Origin: Alphaproteobacteria bacterium
GTDB lineage: Bacteria; Pseudomonadota; Alphaproteobacteria; JAAXGF01
Reading direction: 5' to 3'
Assembly: GCA_963555825.3 (NCBI GenBank)
Contig: CAUVXB020000001.1
Coordinates: 2,208,001 to 2,272,000, forward strand
Length of the DNA: 64,000 nt
Shown here: positions 22,789 through 29,649 of the stretch, piece by piece
Layout: the number at the start of each line of letters is the position of its first letter
Numbering within the stretch: position 1 is the first letter of the stretch
Program-made: the position numbers and the translations under genes
Notes under the pieces: generated by a model
What the model was told of the DNA's origin: nothing
The model's database searches: none
What the model saw: only the letters and a program-made list of their open reading frames with translations

Positions 22789-24255
22789 ATGGCGAGTCGC
22801 CTGCGCCGCCAACAACGTACCAGCGACATCTGGCCTGGCTTCGTCGACGCCCTGTCGACGTTGCTCTTGGTCATCATGTTCGTGCTCGTCGTCTTCATGC
22901 TGGCGCAGTATTTCCTCAATTGGGCGCTGTCGGGCGCCGACAAGACGATCGACAGGTTGACCCGCCAGGTGAATGAGCTGGCCGAGTTGTTGTCGCTCGA
23001 GCAACAGGGCAACGCCGAGTTGCGCCTCGACATCGCCCAGGTCTCGGCCCAACTGCAGAACTCGAGCGCGGCGCGCGACGAACTCTCGTCGCAGCTTCTC
23101 GCGCTTCAATCGGAACACGGCGCGCTCGGCGCGCGGCTCGCCAGCATCGTGACCGAGCGCGACGCGCTCGAGCTGCGCGTCGAGCAGATTACCGAGCGCG
23201 CCGCGTTGGCAGATGCGGAGGCCCAGGCGCTGCGCGAGGCGCTCGCCGAGGCCGACAAGACGATCACCGCCGACCGCGAGACGATCGAGCTCCGGCTCGC
23301 CGAGCTGGCCAGCCTTCGCCAAGACATCGCCGCTCTGCGCAAGGTGCGCGACGAGCTCGAGGGTCAGGTCGGCCAGCTCGCCGTGATCCTCGAAGAGAAA
23401 CAGGGTGCGCTGGACGAGAGCCGCGCCGACGTGACGCGGCTCGATCAGGCGAACACCGCGCTGCGCGACCGCTCGAAGGAGCTCGAGGCGCGGCTCAGCG
23501 ACGAACAAGAGCGCACGTCGCTCGCCCAGAAGGAGATCGAGAAACGCGAGGTGCGCCTGCGCGACCTGGTGCTCGCCCTACGCCAGAGCGACGAGGCGCT
23601 GCTCGCCGAGCGCGACCTGTCGGCCGAGGCCCAGGCCAAGATCGACCTCTTGAACCAGCAAATCGCCCTTCTCAGGCAGGAACTTGCGCGCATTGCCGAT
23701 GCGCTCGACGCGTCGGAAGCCAAGGACATCGAGCACCAGGCGGTAATCGCCGATCTCGGCACCAGGCTCAACCGCGCGCTCGCCGGCAAGGTCCAGGAGC
23801 TGCAGCGCTACCGCTCGGAATTCTTCGGCAAGCTGAGCGAGGTGTTGGGCGACCAGCCGGGCATCCGGGTCGAGGGCGACCGTTTCGTCTTCTCGTCGGA
23901 GGTGCTGTTCGCCTCGGGCTCGGCGGTTCTCGGCGACGAAGGCCGCGTTCAGATGTCGCGGCTCGCCGAAACCTTGCTGCTGATCGCCGCCAAAATTCCC
24001 GACGACCTGCCCTGGATACTGCGCGTCGACGGCCACACCGACAAGATCCCGATCTATACGGAAAAGTTCCCGTCGAACTGGGAACTGTCGACCGCTCGCG
24101 CGATCTCGGTGGTGCGCTATCTGACGGACCAGGGCGTACCGCCCCATCGACTGGCGGCCACCGGCTTCGGCGAATTCCAGCCGATCGATACGCACGACGA
24201 CGAGATCGCCTTGCGCCGCAACCGCCGGATCGAACTCAAGCTGACCACCCGGTAG
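22789..24255 (+). CDS. MotB-like peptidoglycan-binding protein with a long coiled coil
   Basis: WPGFVDALSTLL TM, coiled coil, VDGHTD, NWELSTARA, NRRIEL. Confidence 0.88.
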   Translation: MASRLRRQQRTSDIWPGFVDALSTLLLVIMFVLVVFMLAQYFLNWALSGADKTIDRLTRQVNELAELLSLEQQGNAELRLDIAQVSAQLQNSSAARDELSSQLLALQSEHGALGARLASIVTERDALELRVEQITERAALADAEAQALREALAEADKTITADRETIELRLAELASLRQDIAALRKVRDELEGQVGQLAVILEEKQGALDESRADVTRLDQANTALRDRSKELEARLSDEQERTSLAQKEIEKREVRLRDLVLALRQSDEALLAERDLSAEAQAKIDLLNQQIALLRQELARIADALDASEAKDIEHQAVIADLGTRLNRALAGKVQELQRYRSEFFGKLSEVLGDQPGIRVEGDRFVFSSEVLFASGSAVLGDEGRVQMSRLAETLLLIAAKIPDDLPWILRVDGHTDKIPIYTEKFPSNWELSTARAISVVRYLTDQGVPPHRLAATGFGEFQPIDTHDDEIALRRNRRIELKLTTR

Positions 24256-24261
24256 CCCCGC

Positions 24262-25362
24262 TTGACGCTCATCTCCGCACCACAACTGCGTCAAATGGTG
24301 TTGGCGCTCGCTATTGGCGCGGTCGGCGGCGCGGTCTTCGCCTGGTTGCGCATGCCGCTCGCTTGGATGATGGGCGCCATGTGCCTGACCACGGTGGCGT
24401 CGCTGGCGCGCGCGCCGATCCGCGTGCCGACGCCGCCGCGCCAGTTCATGATTGCGGTTCTCGGCATCATGCTGGGCAGCGCCTTCCGCCCCGAGATGCT
24501 CGATCAGGCCGGCCAGTGGGGCATCAGTCTCGCGGGGCTTTTCGTCTACGTCGCCGTGGTCGCCGCGATGGTCGCCTGCTATTTCCGCTGGGTCGGCCGT
24601 TACGACCCGACGACGGCGTATTTCGCGGCGATCCCGGGTGGCCTCTCCGAGATGATCATGGTCGGCGGCGCATCCGGCGGCGACGAACGGACGATCGCGC
24701 TGACGCACGCCTCGCGTATCCTGATCGTCGTCCTGATCATTCCCTTCTGGTTCCGCCTGGTCGAAGGCTACGTGCCGCCGCCCGGCGGCATCGGCTCGGC
24801 ATTCCCGCCATTCTTGGAAATCCCGGCATACGACCTCGTGGTGTTGACGCTGTGCGGCGTCATCGGCTATCCGCTGGCGCGCCTGATCGGCGTCCCCGCG
24901 GCGCCGTTGACCGGACCGATGGTATTGAGCGCCATCGCCCATCTCACCCTGATGACGTCGTCCCGCCCGCCGCTCGAATTGATCATCGCCGCCCAGGTGG
25001 TGATGGGCAGCGCCATCGGCTGCCGCTTCGCCGGCATCGCCGTCGCGCGCGTGCTGCACGCGATCTTCGTGGCGCTCGGGGCGACGGCCATCATGCTCGG
25101 CGCCGGTGTCGCCTTCAGCCTGGCCATGGGCCGGCTGACCGATCTCCCGGTCGAGGCCCTTGCGCTCGCCTACGCGCCCGGCGGGCTCGCCGAGATGAGC
25201 CTGATCGCGCTCGCGCTGGGCATCGACCCGGCGCTGGTCTCGACCCACCATGTGGTGCGTATCTTCATCGTCGTGCTGATCGCGCCGTTCGCCTTCACGG
25301 TCTTCACGCGCTACCGCGACAGGCGCCGCGCCGCGGCGGGCCAACCGGCCAAGGGCGACTAG
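24262..25362 (+). CDS. AbrB-family (putative ammonia monooxygenase-like) membrane protein
   Basis: Two PGG(L)xEM repeats and multiple TM helices. Confidence 0.85.
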   Translation: MTLISAPQLRQMVLALAIGAVGGAVFAWLRMPLAWMMGAMCLTTVASLARAPIRVPTPPRQFMIAVLGIMLGSAFRPEMLDQAGQWGISLAGLFVYVAVVAAMVACYFRWVGRYDPTTAYFAAIPGGLSEMIMVGGASGGDERTIALTHASRILIVVLIIPFWFRLVEGYVPPPGGIGSAFPPFLEIPAYDLVVLTLCGVIGYPLARLIGVPAAPLTGPMVLSAIAHLTLMTSSRPPLELIIAAQVVMGSAIGCRFAGIAVARVLHAIFVALGATAIMLGAGVAFSLAMGRLTDLPVEALALAYAPGGLAEMSLIALALGIDPALVSTHHVVRIFIVVLIAPFAFTVFTRYRDRRRAAAGQPAKGD

Positions 25363-25564
25363 AGCGTCGTCCGATTTGTTCGAAGTCGATCGTTATCGGA
25401 AAATGGTCGTCGTGCCACGGCATCCCGCCCGAAGGCTGTGTTCGGATGCGCAGTGGTCACGGTCTTGGGTGGGACTTACGGCCAATCAATAATCTTCGAT
25501 CATGTCCGGTTTCGAGCGCAAAGCGGACTCCGCAACGTGTTCTGCCTAATGTCAGCTTTTAGCC

Positions 25565-25725
25565 GAGGCTGTTGAAAAAGTCGGTAGCGGAACCAAACTC
25601 GCCAATTTCCCGGAACCAATGAGAATTCGATTTCAATGAAATCAAAGACTTAGGAAAACACCGATTTCGGAGAATTGGCCAATTCAGGCTAAAAATGGAT
25701 GTTTCGGGACTTTTTCAACAGCCTC
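25565..25725. mobile_element. 161-bp MITE with IS1182/IS5-like ends
   Basis: Perfect 18-bp IR GAGGCTGTTGAAAAAGTC; 4-bp TSD AGCC at 25561-25564 and 25726-25729. Confidence 0.8.
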
Positions 25726-25728
25726 AGC

Positions 25729-26676
25729 CATGTGTGGACGGCTCCCTGTTGGCAAGAGATTTTGTGACGTTGATGCAAGCTGGTCGGGTGCTGCCATGTG
25801 TCCGGCCTTTTGGTGCGGCGTACATGTGTGGACGGCTCCCTGTTGGCAAGAGATTTTGTGACGTTGATGCAAGCTGGTCGGGTGCTGCCATGTGTCCGGC
25901 CTTTTGGTGCGGCGTACATGGCCGCTGGCCCTAATGCGATCCGCGGGGTCGGGTCCCATGTGTGGACGGCTCCCTGTTGGCAAGAGATTTTGTGACGTTG
26001 ATGCAAGCTGGTCATGTGTCCGGCCGTACATGGCCGCTGGGGCTGGCCTGTGACGATGCTGCGGATGGTCGGGTGCTGCCATGTGTCCGGCGCGGGGTCG
26101 GGTCCCATGCGATCCGCGTGGACGGCTCCCTGTTGGCAAGAGATTTTGTGACGTTGATCCTGCAAGCATGCCTTTTGGTGCGGCGTACATGGCCGTCCGG
26201 CCTTGCGATTGGTGCGGCCCATGGGCGGACGGCTCCCTGTTGCCAAGATGCGATCCGCGATGCAAGCTGGTCGGGTGTGGACCGCCCCTGCGGCCCATGT
26301 GTGGACGGCGTACATGAAGCCGCTGGTTAATGCGATCCGCGGGGTCGGTCCCAGCGCAAGATGATTTTGTGACGTTGATGCAAGCTGGTCGGGTGCTGCC
26401 ATGTGTCCGGCCTTTTGGTGCGGCGTACATGGCCGCTGGCCCTAATGCGATCCGCGGGGTCAAGCTGGTCGGGGGTCCCATGTGTGGACGGCTCCCTGTT
26501 GGCAAGAGATTTTGCTGGCCATGCAAGCTGGTCGGGTGCTGCCATGTGTCCGGCCTTTTGGTGCGGCGAGATTTTGTGACGTTGATGCAAGCTGGTCGGG
26601 TGCTGCCATGTGTCCGGCCTTTTGGTGCGGCGTACATGGCCGCTGGCCCTAATGCGATCCGCGGGGTCGGGTCCCA
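25729..26676. repeat. Tandem and scrambled array of the terminal 94-134 bp of the IS1111 right end
   Basis: GGACGGCTCCCTGTT six times, GGTCGGGTGCTGCCATGTGTCCGGC six times; clean units at 25729-25822 and 25823-25956, jumbled middle. Confidence 0.85.
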
Positions 26677-26760
26677 GTCATAAGCACGCGCTCGAGGCGC
26701 CGTGGCTATAGCGGGTTTTCCCGATCCTCGGTTCGACCGATTTTGCATTACGTCACTTAC
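26569..26760 (-). ncRNA. Putative bridge/seek RNA of the IS1111 element (ends approximate)
   Basis: Downstream of tnp; CCGCTA-T-AGCCAC matches the target; CCGCACCA and ACACATG match the circle junction. Confidence 0.6.
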
Positions 26761-26797
26761 ACTCCGCCAAACTCGTGAACGCCTTGTTTTCGTCGGC

Positions 26798-27820
26798 CTA
26801 GGCCGTCGCGGGCCTGCGATAGGTTCCGCCATGTCTCAGAAGCGCCCAGGCAATGCGGGCGTTCTTGTTGGCCAGCGCCACGGCCGCGACCTTGGTCGGC
26901 TTGTCGGCGATGATGTTGGCAAGCCATGGATCGGTCGTGCCGCGTCGCTTGGCGTGGCGGATGACCGTCATGGCGCCGGCGACCAGCAGCCAGCGCAGGT
27001 ATTGATCGCCCTGCTTGGAGATCCGCCCCATGCGCTCCTTGCCACCGGTCGAGTTCTGTCTTGGCACCAGCCCGATCCAAGCGGCCATTGAGCGGCCCGA
27101 TTTGAAGATCGACGGATTGGCAATCGAAGATGCCAGCGCGCTCGCCGTGATCGGTCCGATGCCGGGTGTGGTTTCGAGACGCAGGCTCTCTTCGTTCGTC
27201 CGGTGCCAGGCGTGGATACGCCTCTCAGCGCCGACGATCTCCCGCTCCAGCGACAGCAACTGCCGCGCCAGCCCTTCCAGGCAAGTCCGCGCCAGGGGCG
27301 GAATGCGCTCATCCGCCTCATCGCTGATCACCGCGAGCAGCTCCTTGACCTGCGGCAACCCGGTTCGCGCCACCACCCCGAACTCCGCCATGTGCGCCCG
27401 CGTAGCGTTGACCAGCATGGTTCTCTGGCGGACCAGAAGCTCGCGCGTTCGGTGCAGCATCAGAACGCTCTGCTGCTCGACGCTCTTCACCGCGACAAAG
27501 CGCATCGTCGGGCGCGTGACGGCCTCGCAAATAGCCTCCGCATCGGCAGCGTCATTCTTGTTCCGCTTCACGTAGGGCTTCACATAGCGCGGCGGCATCA
27601 GCTTGACCTCATGCCCAAGCGCCGCGATCTCCCGCGCCCAGTAATGCGCGGTCGCACATGCCTCCATACCAACCAGGCAGGGCGGCTGTTTCTCGAAGAA
27701 GGCCAGCACCTGACGCCGCCTCAACTGACGGCGGACGACCACGGTTCCCTCGGCGTCAACGCCATGCACCTGAAATACGTTCTTCGCAAGATCAACACCG
27801 ATCGTGATAACTTCGTTCAT
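26798..27820 (-). CDS. IS110-family recombinase/transposase
   Basis: IGVDLAK, GMEAC, KNDAADAEAI (DEDD); GLVPRQNSTGG catalytic Ser; intact. Confidence 0.95.
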   Translation of the reverse strand: MNEVITIGVDLAKNVFQVHGVDAEGTVVVRRQLRRRQVLAFFEKQPPCLVGMEACATAHYWAREIAALGHEVKLMPPRYVKPYVKRNKNDAADAEAICEAVTRPTMRFVAVKSVEQQSVLMLHRTRELLVRQRTMLVNATRAHMAEFGVVARTGLPQVKELLAVISDEADERIPPLARTCLEGLARQLLSLEREIVGAERRIHAWHRTNEESLRLETTPGIGPITASALASSIANPSIFKSGRSMAAWIGLVPRQNSTGGKERMGRISKQGDQYLRWLLVAGAMTVIRHAKRRGTTDPWLANIIADKPTKVAAVALANKNARIAWALLRHGGTYRRPATA

Positions 27821-27959
27821 GGACGGCTCCTATTTCCCTGTGGTTCATCGAAACCACCATTTTGGCACCTAGATGCCTGCGGGTGGGAGCCGTCCACCGC
27901 ATCACTAGCGGACATTCGCACGGGACGCCGCAGAGCGATGATTGCTCCTCGAATCACAT

Positions 27960-28072
27960 CGGCGTCCGCCCTCGCTGACGACGATGAAGGGTGCCAAGAA
28001 CATGGGGTGGGTGAAGTAGTTTTTGCCCTCGGTCTCCATCATCGACAGCACAGAGCAACGGAACGACCTCAT
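27960..28072 (-). pseudogene. C-terminal fragment of a CHAT-domain-like protein
   Basis: Translates SVLSMMETEGKNYFTHPMFLAPFIVVSEGG, like the HPxxWAPFxxxG(E/D)G end of CHAT domains. Confidence 0.5.
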
Positions 28073-28308
28073 GGGTTCTCCTCGGTATGATTAGTGCGGA
28101 TCGCCGCAGCGCGGGCTTCCATATTGGCCGCTTCTGATCCACGGTCGGTCTCTCGTAGCAGGGTGGCGTTTTCGTCGCGATGGACCCAACCCGGAAGTCG
28201 GCATCGCTGCCACTGGGCATTCTCAACGTCGTGCAGTAGCATCGAACAAATCGTTTAATTACTTATCAACCTTGCTGCATAATTTGAGTTCGTAACTCGG
28301 ATTCGGCT

Positions 28309-28467: not shown

Positions 28468-29589
28468 CTAGTGTCCCGATTCCGAAGTTCGCATGATTTT
28501 CGCCTGCTGTTCAGCGATTTCGATTGTTCGGAGGCAGAAGCGCTGGATGGCGCCGAGGATGTCATCGGCGGATTTGGTCCATTTGAAGGGTTTGGGGTTC
28601 TGGTTTGTCGTGTCGATGTAGTCGAGGATGGTGCGCTCCAACTCCTTGGTGGAGCGATGGACGCCGCGCCTGATCTGCTTGTCGGTCAGCAGCCCGAACC
28701 AGCGCTCGACCTGGTTCAGCCAGGAGGCGCTGGTGGGTGTGAAATGGGCCTGCCAGCGCGGCCGTTTGGCGAACCAGTCGCGGATCGCCTTGGTCTTGTG
28801 GGTCCCGTAGTTGTCCATGACGATGTGGATGTCGAGATCAGCAGGGACGTTCGCCTCGACGAGGTCGAGGAATTTGCGGAACTCTCGGGCCCGATGGCGC
28901 GGGAAACATTTGCCGATGATCTCTCCCGTGGCGATGTCGAGGGCCGCGAAGAGAGAGGTCGTGCCGTGGCGCTTGTAGTCGTGGCTGCGCCGCTCCGCCT
29001 GCCCGGGGCGCATCGGCAAGAGGGGCTGGGAACGGTCCAGGGCCTGGATCTGGCTCTTTTCGTCGACACAGAGAACCAGGGCACGATCCGGCGGCGCCAA
29101 ATACAGACCGACGATGTCGCGGACCTTCTCCACGAAGAAGGGATCGCTCGACAGCTTGAAGGTCTCCGAGCGATGCGGCTGCAAGCCGAAGGCCCGCCAG
29201 ATGCGATGAATGGTCGAGGGCGCGTGGCCGCTCGCCCGCGCCATCGAGCGAAGGCTCCAATGGGTCGCGTCCGGCGGCGTCTCTTCCAGCGTCAGCCGGA
29301 CCGCTTCCGCGATGGCGTCATCGCCGATTTGACGCGGCGCGCCGGGGCGGGGTTCGTCGTACAGACCGTCGAGGCCCTCCGCCGCATAGCGGCGACGCCA
29401 CTTGCCCACGGTGTCCGCGCTCGCCTCGAGACGAACGGCGATCTCCTTGTTCTCCAACCCTTCCGCCGCCGCCAAGACGATCCGAGCCCGCCGCGCAAGC
29501 CCCTGCGACGTCTTGCGACGACGAGACAGCGCCTCCAATTCGGCGCGCTCGTCATCGCTCAAAGAGATCGTCACCGCCACTCTCGCCAT
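28468..29589 (-). CDS. IS630 transposase
   Basis: [40 protein letters not shown]. Confidence 0.93.
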
Positions 29590-29649
29590 CAATCGCGCCT
29601 CCTAAAAACAAATAGAGACATAATCATATCAATTTATCGATCAGGACAC
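28471..29649 (-). mobile_element. IS630-family element
   Basis: IR GTGTCC(C/T)GAT; TA duplication in a CTAG target. Confidence 0.9.

Follow-up and report, generated by a model that had tools for sequence, protein, structure and literature searches.

What turned one end of an otherwise ordinary insertion sequence (IS) into an array of repeated, truncated copies of itself? The question is raised by positions 25729-26676 of the stretch of DNA analyzed here (the window, 64,000 nucleotides in all), which corresponds to C1:2208001-2272000 of an alphaproteobacterial source genome (G000) of 6.04 Mb in two contigs (C1 and C2). These positions hold the expanded right end (RE) of a 1364-bp element that is an ordinary IS1111-type member of the IS110 family and of which the genome has six near-identical copies, the window copy included. 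Judging from its junctions, the array was probably produced by RE-anchored recombination carried out by the element's own recombinase, a half-match reaction in which only LD (the right end in the nomenclature of a preprint discussed below) is matched, followed by homology-driven changes in copy number.

The right-end array and its junctions

Positions within the element are given in canonical numbering. A natural, contiguous, single-ended copy of 1364 bp was taken as the canonical element; its numbering follows the orientation of the window and runs from CATGTGTGGACGG at the RE terminus to ..CCGCATCA at the left end. For the innermost window copy, the window position equals 26540 plus the canonical position. 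Decomposed against this copy, the array reads flank, 1-94, 1-134, 1-57, mosaic, 1-36, 45-92 and 29-1364, with the following features in and around it (REP/MITE-like, resembling a repetitive extragenic palindrome or miniature inverted-repeat transposable element; IR, inverted repeat).

25562-25728, unstranded: left portion of the insertion target, a high-copy REP/MITE-like repeat whose inverted arms of 21 nt lie at 25562-25582 and 25708-25728
25729-25822, minus strand: outermost RE unit, canonical 1-94 (exact match to canonical 1-98), starting with the flank-abutting core CA
25823-25956, minus strand: second RE unit, corresponding to canonical 1-134 and matching the canonical copy exactly over 5-136
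25957-26013, minus strand: start of the third RE unit, canonical 1-57, exact in the decomposition
26014-26478, unstranded: mosaic of canonical fragments and filler, in which no joint restarts at the terminus via a CA overlap
26479-26568, minus strand: further terminus copy (canonical 1-36, 6-nt filler, canonical 45-92), with a non-CA joint (92 to 29) to the body
26569-27904, minus strand: IS body, canonical 29-1364 (1336-nt exact match to canonical), with the left-end core CA at 27903-27904
26575-26758, minus strand: predicted seekRNA/bridge-RNA gene in the 3' non-coding region, closing stem GTGACGT/ACGTCAC
26604-26617, minus strand: donor-side guide of the innermost unit (RE terminus (LD), core and first flank bases, same sense)
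26702-26714, minus strand: target guide (GTGGCT, reverse complement of core and right flank; TAGCGG, the other flank, same sense)
26798-27820, minus strand: intact open reading frame for a 340-aa IS110-family DEDD recombinase (PF01548, 1.7e-16; PF02371, 7.9e-26)
27885-27897, minus strand: left-end sub-terminal IR (motif match, 13 nt)
27905-27917, unstranded: right half of the interrupted target (CTAGCGGACATTC), from flank comparison of copies and empty sites

The two outer joints are exact. At 25823 canonical 98 is joined to 1 with CATG common to both sides, and at 25957 canonical 136 is joined to 1 with CA in common; perfect matches extend for at least 98 nt and at least 55 nt on their sides. 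The initial annotation had also counted 26479 among the clean restarts of the terminus at CA, and that junction is literally there, but its in-register match on the left is just 5-6 nt. Tandem Repeats Finder (TRF) reported a 94-bp period with 2.0 copies and 100% matches at 25729-25920, and a repeat finder returned a 132-nt unit in five copies. The 13-nt RE sub-terminal IR (at most one mismatch) occurs six times on the plus strand in 25734-26496, five times exactly, and once on the minus strand, while the donor-guide motif is present seven times (six exact) in 25793-26617, five of these copies lying in the array 5' of the one at 26604-26617. None of 100 shuffles gave seven matches for either motif, and the counts agree with the estimate of about six copies each made at first sight.

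Between about 26014 and 26478 the sequence breaks up into canonical fragments of 10-55 nt (one of 99 nt), which overlap by 0-1 nt or are separated by 5-25 nt of filler matching nothing. These fragment joints lack the CA/terminus signature and cannot be explained by the process behind the clean joints; this middle is probably not literal sequence, and the caveat attached to it in the initial annotation was justified.

All six copies have flanks that diverge directly outside CA at both ends, and the conserved copy flanks (..AGC-CA and CA-yTAGCGGACATT) point to site-specific insertion without longer target duplication. The 22-nt left flank (25707-25728) has 22 matches in the genome at up to four mismatches, two or three of them occupied sites, and is followed by CA in ten and by TA in eight. 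Uninterrupted targets have a single CA or TA and then nnAGCnGACATT, the sequence that the window also shows after the left IS end. Since the flanks diverge at CA and empty targets hold one such dinucleotide, CA is the core common to target and element, as had been proposed for both element ends. The repeat's TA variant is occupied by a related element that has TA as its core. At least three IS110-family lineages (the CA-core element, TA-core relatives and relatives with 56% identical recombinases) sit in the REP/MITE-like repeat, at differing positions, and depth bins for this repeat in public sequencing runs lie far above unique flank, a value that is not a copy number.

Comparison with the other copies of the IS, a check advised in the initial annotation, revealed RE arrays in four of the six and a single end in two (C2:523880-525520 and C2:1504800-1506430). 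Unit sizes over all loci are 24, 66, 94, 134, 138, 296 and 872 bp, and the arrays outside the window are composed as follows.

Locus B, C1:169450-171560: units of 94, 94, 134 and 134 bp (TRF 94 x3, 134 x3)
Locus D, C2:1402650-1405400: units of 66, 66, 66 and 872 bp (TRF 66 x4.1, 872 x2)
Locus F, C2:2096440-2099800: about ten 24-bp units, then 138- and 296-bp units and jumbled stretches (TRF 296 x3.3, 138 x2.2)

Junctions that restart the terminus fall into seven types, and in all seven the partner is an internal CA, at canonical 25, 67, 95, 135, 139, 297 or 873. Canonical 3-900 contains 53 CA dinucleotides (frequency 0.059), and uniformly placed breakpoints would all fall on CA with p ~2.5e-9; within the first 150 bp, five of seven CA sites have served as junction partner. 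Overlap with the terminus amounts to 7, 4, 3, 2, 2, 2 and 2 nt by junction type, and as four types share nothing but the CA, longer microhomology is unnecessary. Each terminus-restarting boundary carries the RE terminus, and its partner side matches the left end over 0-1 contiguous nt. In the clean arrays the units shrink toward the flank (134, 134, 94, 94; 872, 66, 66, 66; window 134, 94), as would be expected if units were added at the outer junction and cores close by were preferred.

Two further observations concern the ends of this IS and of its relatives. The single-ended copy at C2:523880-525520 is joined end to end with the right end of a 79%-related IS, forming a near-perfect palindrome (..GTCCACACATAGC against CATGTGTGGAC..), and at about C2:1017000 another copy of the 79% relative adjoins a 13-nt remnant of the CA-core IS terminus, followed by unrelated sequence.

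The predicted guide RNA and the content of the units

The recombinase sequence is 100% identical in five copies of the IS. A perfect 13-nt IR (canonical 6-18 against 27885-27897) stands 5 nt in from the right terminus and 7 nt in from the left one, and in the canonical copy 257 bp of non-coding sequence separate the tnp stop codon (26798) from the terminus. The element was assigned to the IS1111 group because the sub-terminal IRs and the 257-bp 3' non-coding region fit the group description in the available text of PMC11187229. Together with both Pfam domains and the fixed core dinucleotide, these features bear out the IS1111-type identity and the intact recombinase described initially.

According to the same text, seekRNA derives from the region downstream of tnp, and for this reason the predicted RNA was placed on the minus strand. 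Its predicted fold has a free energy of -73.6 kcal/mol (z = -3.22; none of 200 shuffles as good). No Rfam match was found in 25300-28300 (evalue mode) and no sigma-70-like promoter in a scan of 25650-28000. An alignment of 11 related non-coding regions, from which T1 (without anchor) and G003b (identical after trimming) had been dropped, showed that the architecture is conserved, with a long-range closing stem in which there is a compensatory change; this stem reads GTGACGT..ACGTCAC in the window IS and GTGAGGT..ACCTCA in R5 and G001a.

Covariation with the insertion site pointed to both guide segments. An antisense segment of core and flank at about -165 from the terminus varies together with the flank in 8 of 12 related non-coding regions; for the window IS the script picked a longer chance match, and GTGGCT at 162-167 is the corresponding segment. 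A same-sense segment consisting of the RE terminus, the core and the first 2-4 flank bases lies at -69 to -72 and covaries in 11 of the 12, and this donor-side guide matches the integrated right junction over 9 nt. A right-donor guide, meaning a segment that covaries with the left end, was not found in the related non-coding regions. A GCATCA match to the left end was rejected for this role, since it belongs to the closing stem and persists in relatives whose left ends differ, and a GCCATGT antisense match at -98, which by eye covaries with the guide in just two lineages, was not used.

The 94- and 134-bp units include the sub-terminal repeat and the donor-side guide and leave out the target guide, and they would thus represent the donor-side half of the predicted seekRNA/bridge-RNA gene. 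Given this content, the array offers several alternative right ends, and the many donor loops envisaged initially are hypothetical; that the amplified units carry both components had been noted initially and is substantiated by the covariation described above. The companion claim that the target guide escapes amplification is correct for the window, where its motif occurs once (26702-26714), but it is no rule: at locus F the 296-bp units repeat the target guide together with the last tnp codons. At locus D, the 872-bp unit takes in 209 tnp codons.

On the plus strand, antisense to tnp, each unit contains a 10-pair hairpin followed by TTTT (25782-25807, 25876-25901, 26387-26412, 26530-26555 and 26594-26619). 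These hairpins, flagged by a terminator scan, overlap the donor-side guide and include some G-T pairs that would be lost on the tnp strand.

Origin of the arrays

A second IS110-family element in the same assembly follows the same rule with a different core. Its recombinase (343 aa, both Pfam domains) is 32% identical to that of the window, and it is present in four copies (L141, L142; C1:343900-346700, C1:934800-937100, C2:1372000-1374600 and C1:1664500-1666700). The core is AC, and the uninterrupted target TTTTTAC-AC-AGCCTGG was seen in other flanks. In all four copies the right end is duplicated; the units measure 630, 122, 203 (x2) and 23 bp, the last of them recognized by eye and the other three by TRF, and every time ..GAGA-AC is joined to an internal AC. 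Counting both elements, arrays are present in eight of ten copies in one genome. Across four other IS110-family lineages (6, 5, 1 and 12 copies), tandem arrays of at least 95% identity within 1.5 kb were found in none of 24 copies, and for an abundant IS630-like element (168 BLAST rows) the whole genome yielded one tandem duplication, an internal one of 277 bp at C2:1324774-1325328. With other repeats free of such arrays, the arrays are specific to two elements and reflect no general repeat property of the assembly.

The genome also contains arrays of 20-bp units (6-10 copies) at C1:918031-918171, C1:1153667-1153806, C2:928738-928858 and C2:1785795-1785984, two of which adjoin sequence resembling the flank of the IS630-like element. 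At C2:3235078-3236084 lies an array with a 61-bp period and a conserved unit of about 29 nt, which resembles a CRISPR array by TRF consensus alone. Within the window, an IS630-type transposase gene (DDE_3 and HTH domains; 28468-29592, minus strand) adjoins the IS, and the upstream neighbors, encoding an OmpA-domain protein (22789-24255) and an AbrB-family membrane protein (24262-25362), are apparently unrelated to it.

A search of 61 genomes (the source and 60 others) gave matches in six, source included, and no near-identical copy outside the source genome, the best being 75%. Right-end duplication recurs in other assemblies at low frequency. When 80 loci encoding recombinase relatives (60-84% identity) were scanned by TRF, five had a tandem repeat near the tnp 3' end. 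At L098, ..CCACACA-TG-GATCAG.. occurs twice with a 98-bp unit, and the internal site GGCCA-TG corresponds to site 95 of the window IS; L073, a sister copy in the same metagenome-assembled genome (MAG), has a single end. At L131, ..CCATACA-TG is joined to an internal TG 193 bp upstream, giving a 193-bp unit, and L134 in the same MAG has the same unit as judged from TRF only. The other two hits were a 21-bp repeat about 600 bp off at L118 (TRF flag only) and, at L081, a 62-bp duplication in which the terminus is not involved.

Three features together implicate the elements' own recombinases: the terminus is reused exactly, the core rule holds in two elements whose cores differ, and other repeats are free of arrays. 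In the reading favored here, the recombinase, with its 3'-encoded seekRNA/bridge RNA, would re-engage the integrated right junction, which one guide matches over the 9 nt given above, and would exchange strands with nearby DNA that offers little beyond the core, a one-sided, LD-only half-match. Each unit would stem from a crossover of the terminal core CA with an internal CA and a restart at the true terminus; the partner would most simply be a sister copy, and the stretch between the internal CA and the end would be duplicated on the flank side. Equal-sized units could then gain or lose copies through ordinary homologous misalignment. Since a unit of 23-24 bp cannot form a double-stranded circle, re-insertion of partial circles is less likely than a single-strand route or an exchange of sister copies.

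Several observations weigh against this reading. The innermost joint of the window array (canonical 92 to 29, at 26568) is flanked by long exact matches to either side, has 1 nt of overlap and does not restart the terminus; it is an apparent exception to the CA rule. A clean joint of 98 to 67 in locus F links two internal CATG sites and likewise falls outside the rule of CA to terminus. Junction partner sites have no similarity to the left end or target beyond 0-2 nt, and neither reciprocal deletion products nor solo units were seen in the genome. Close relatives in the same genome (recombinases 79% and 56% identical) have arrays in none of 11 copies, and terminus-type duplications elsewhere are rare (3 of 80 loci, in two genomes). 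Among 30 metagenome contigs with the 30-nt terminus (31 termini), none has a second terminus on the same strand; by inspection, REP-like flank comes before all 31 termini, and IS-internal sequence before none. This null result is weak, as short-read assemblies tend to collapse arrays. Finally, the dependence of the arrays on a recombinase is itself something that we infer from the junctions.

Founding duplications could also have formed without a recombinase, by replication slippage or microhomology template switching in the structured non-coding end, with homologous misalignment thereafter. The 66- and 94-bp junctions, which also count among the points against the favored reading, overlap the terminus by 7 nt (CATGTGT) and 4 nt (CATG), so slippage could have created them as well; runs of equal units (66 x3, 138 x4, 296 x3 and about 24 x10) could be expanded by homology alone, and the non-CA joint of 92 to 29 and the internal 62-bp duplication at L081, away from the terminus, also speak for it. 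Against slippage stand the exact restart of all seven recurrent junction types at the element terminus, the four types that overlap by just 2 nt, the second element doing likewise at its own terminus and its own core AC, and the absence of such arrays from other abundant repeats in the assembly, and we regard it as unlikely.

A variant that retains the recombinase is nested insertion, in which whole IS circles enter an internal CA of a resident copy and homologous recombination then deletes one body. It would yield the same junction of RE terminus, core and internal sequence at any unit size, 23-24 bp included, and in its favor insertion by IS621 tolerates half-site partners (10.64898/2026.08.31.748434) and whole-module tandem repeats have been reported for IS110 elements. 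Nested intermediates, however, were present at none of the ten copies, and the deletion step would be expected to erase earlier units lying between the bodies, which would make mixed arrays (134, 134, 94, 94; 872, 66, 66, 66) hard to build; the explanation is rated unlikely, slightly below slippage. The initial proposal of recombinase-driven self-insertion or end re-copying is kept in part: junctions at CA in seven of seven types, and at AC in the second element, speak for it, but self-insertion of whole circles fits the mixed arrays poorly.

An artefact of assembly or polishing at a repeated element, with no real molecule carrying the arrays, is very improbable: the middle of the window array and parts of locus F do resemble a consensus of mis-phased reads and the assembly may derive from a mixed population, but two unrelated elements have, at 4+4 loci, clean arrays whose units are 100% identical and whose junctions obey a specific rule, and the same kind of junction is found in two other assemblies. 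Public sequencing runs add a weak hint. Two short contigs from two runs cross the 94-bp junction at 25823, one of 56 nt (no differences; 26 + 30 nt) and one of 77 nt (one difference; 49 + 28 nt), both below the spanning rule of 31 + 31 letters. A contig joining 25755 to 26568 was set aside, since it represents the canonical single end and its short side of 29 letters is not locus-specific; bins 25994-26425 had no Logan contig cover in four runs, which was not used as evidence.

The favored reading, recombination anchored at the right end, has a bolder form, in which the right ends of two unrelated IS1111-like elements would be actively growing, hypervariable arrays whose partner needs only the 2-nt core. 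We consider this extension doubtful. If it were true, the arrays would be a natural, readable record of half-match events, and the copies of donor guide and sub-terminal repeat might in turn influence transposition, either by acting as alternative right ends or by decoying the recombinase-RNA complex.

Bridge/seek-RNA recombinases are under development as genome editors, for which half-match reactions are the chief off-target source known. The source genome provides an unusually dense natural sample of half-match-type events, in the IS1111 branch, where the guide gene lies at the re-copied end. From their sequence, the arrays suggest that an integrated right junction may stay a substrate, that nearby core dinucleotides may suffice as partners and that arrays may grow at their outer end, points which bear on both mechanism and editor design. 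For annotation, they caution that the ends of IS110/IS1111 elements may be present in several copies and that a consensus there may not be literal.

Relation to known systems

At its basic level the mobile element resembles ISEc11, ISPa11 and ISKpn4, which, according to the available text of PMC11187229, likewise have a recombinase of ~340 aa, sub-terminal IRs and a long 3' non-coding region; two short segments match opposite strands of a REP-like target, and the insertion position is fixed. No end amplification is described for them in that text. Among the literature matches listed for IS1111 and tandem repeats, all concerned Coxiella typing and none end arrays.

ISPpu9 with ssr9 (PMC12288879, available portions) is similar in being an IS110-family element that targets REPs and has its small-RNA gene downstream of tnp. 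Its extra end-like boxes A' and B' allow alternative junctions, with crossover at the fixed dinucleotide AG, and make up one extra module with diverged boxes that is mobile as a separate unit. The IS studied here differs in having many identical partial copies of its end in tandem, without solo units in the genome. In CazIS110-1 (bioRxiv 10.1101/2025.10.25.684509, as far as available), tandem repeats of the whole cargo arose as a by-product of the IS110 recombinase in 3 of 96 colonies and reverted, whereas the window units are partial ends.

The available text of the IS621 preprint cited above describes recombination with a one-arm match plus the core (bioRxiv 10.64898/2026.08.31.748434). That one arm and the core suffice for strand exchange would, by analogy, provide a biochemical basis for RE-anchored events. 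The IS621 work concerns an IS110-type element with a 5' bridge RNA and a CT core in a cell-free setting, and reports no tandem end arrays in the text available; unlike in that half-match reaction, several partner sites in the source genome have the core only and no arm match.

The closest precedent is a 2026 preprint (bioRxiv 10.64898/2026.08.14.744561) whose available text reports tandem non-coding repeat units beside IS110 transposases (n = 468) with LD-only boundaries, the matches kept being almost exclusively to LD, read by its authors as half-match recombination resolved in place. The architecture, presented in the initial annotation as unfamiliar from the literature, has already been described. 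The screen in that preprint used units of at least 50 bp and at least 95% identity in at least two adjacent same-strand copies beside the recombinase gene, a definition under which the 94-bp window unit (2.0 copies, 100%) and other loci of the source genome fall. In both cases same-strand units adjoin the recombinase gene and boundaries keep the LD (right-end) match only, a label that applies here because the right end is LD in the preprint's nomenclature. Differences lie in the element and in resolution: the window IS is IS1111-type, and the word IS1111 does not occur in the preprint text available; the window units contain part of the RNA gene and the sub-terminal IR, because the IS1111-type guide gene sits at the 3' end; the junctions of the window genome can be read down to the core dinucleotide, and most CA sites in the vicinity have been used; and units extend down to 23-24 bp, below the 50-bp limit of that screen. 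Overall, the array looks like an instance of this tandem-expansion class, a by-product of the recombinase rather than a new system, to which the window case adds an IS1111 setting, core junctions at base level, units shorter than 50 bp and an exceptional density in one genome.

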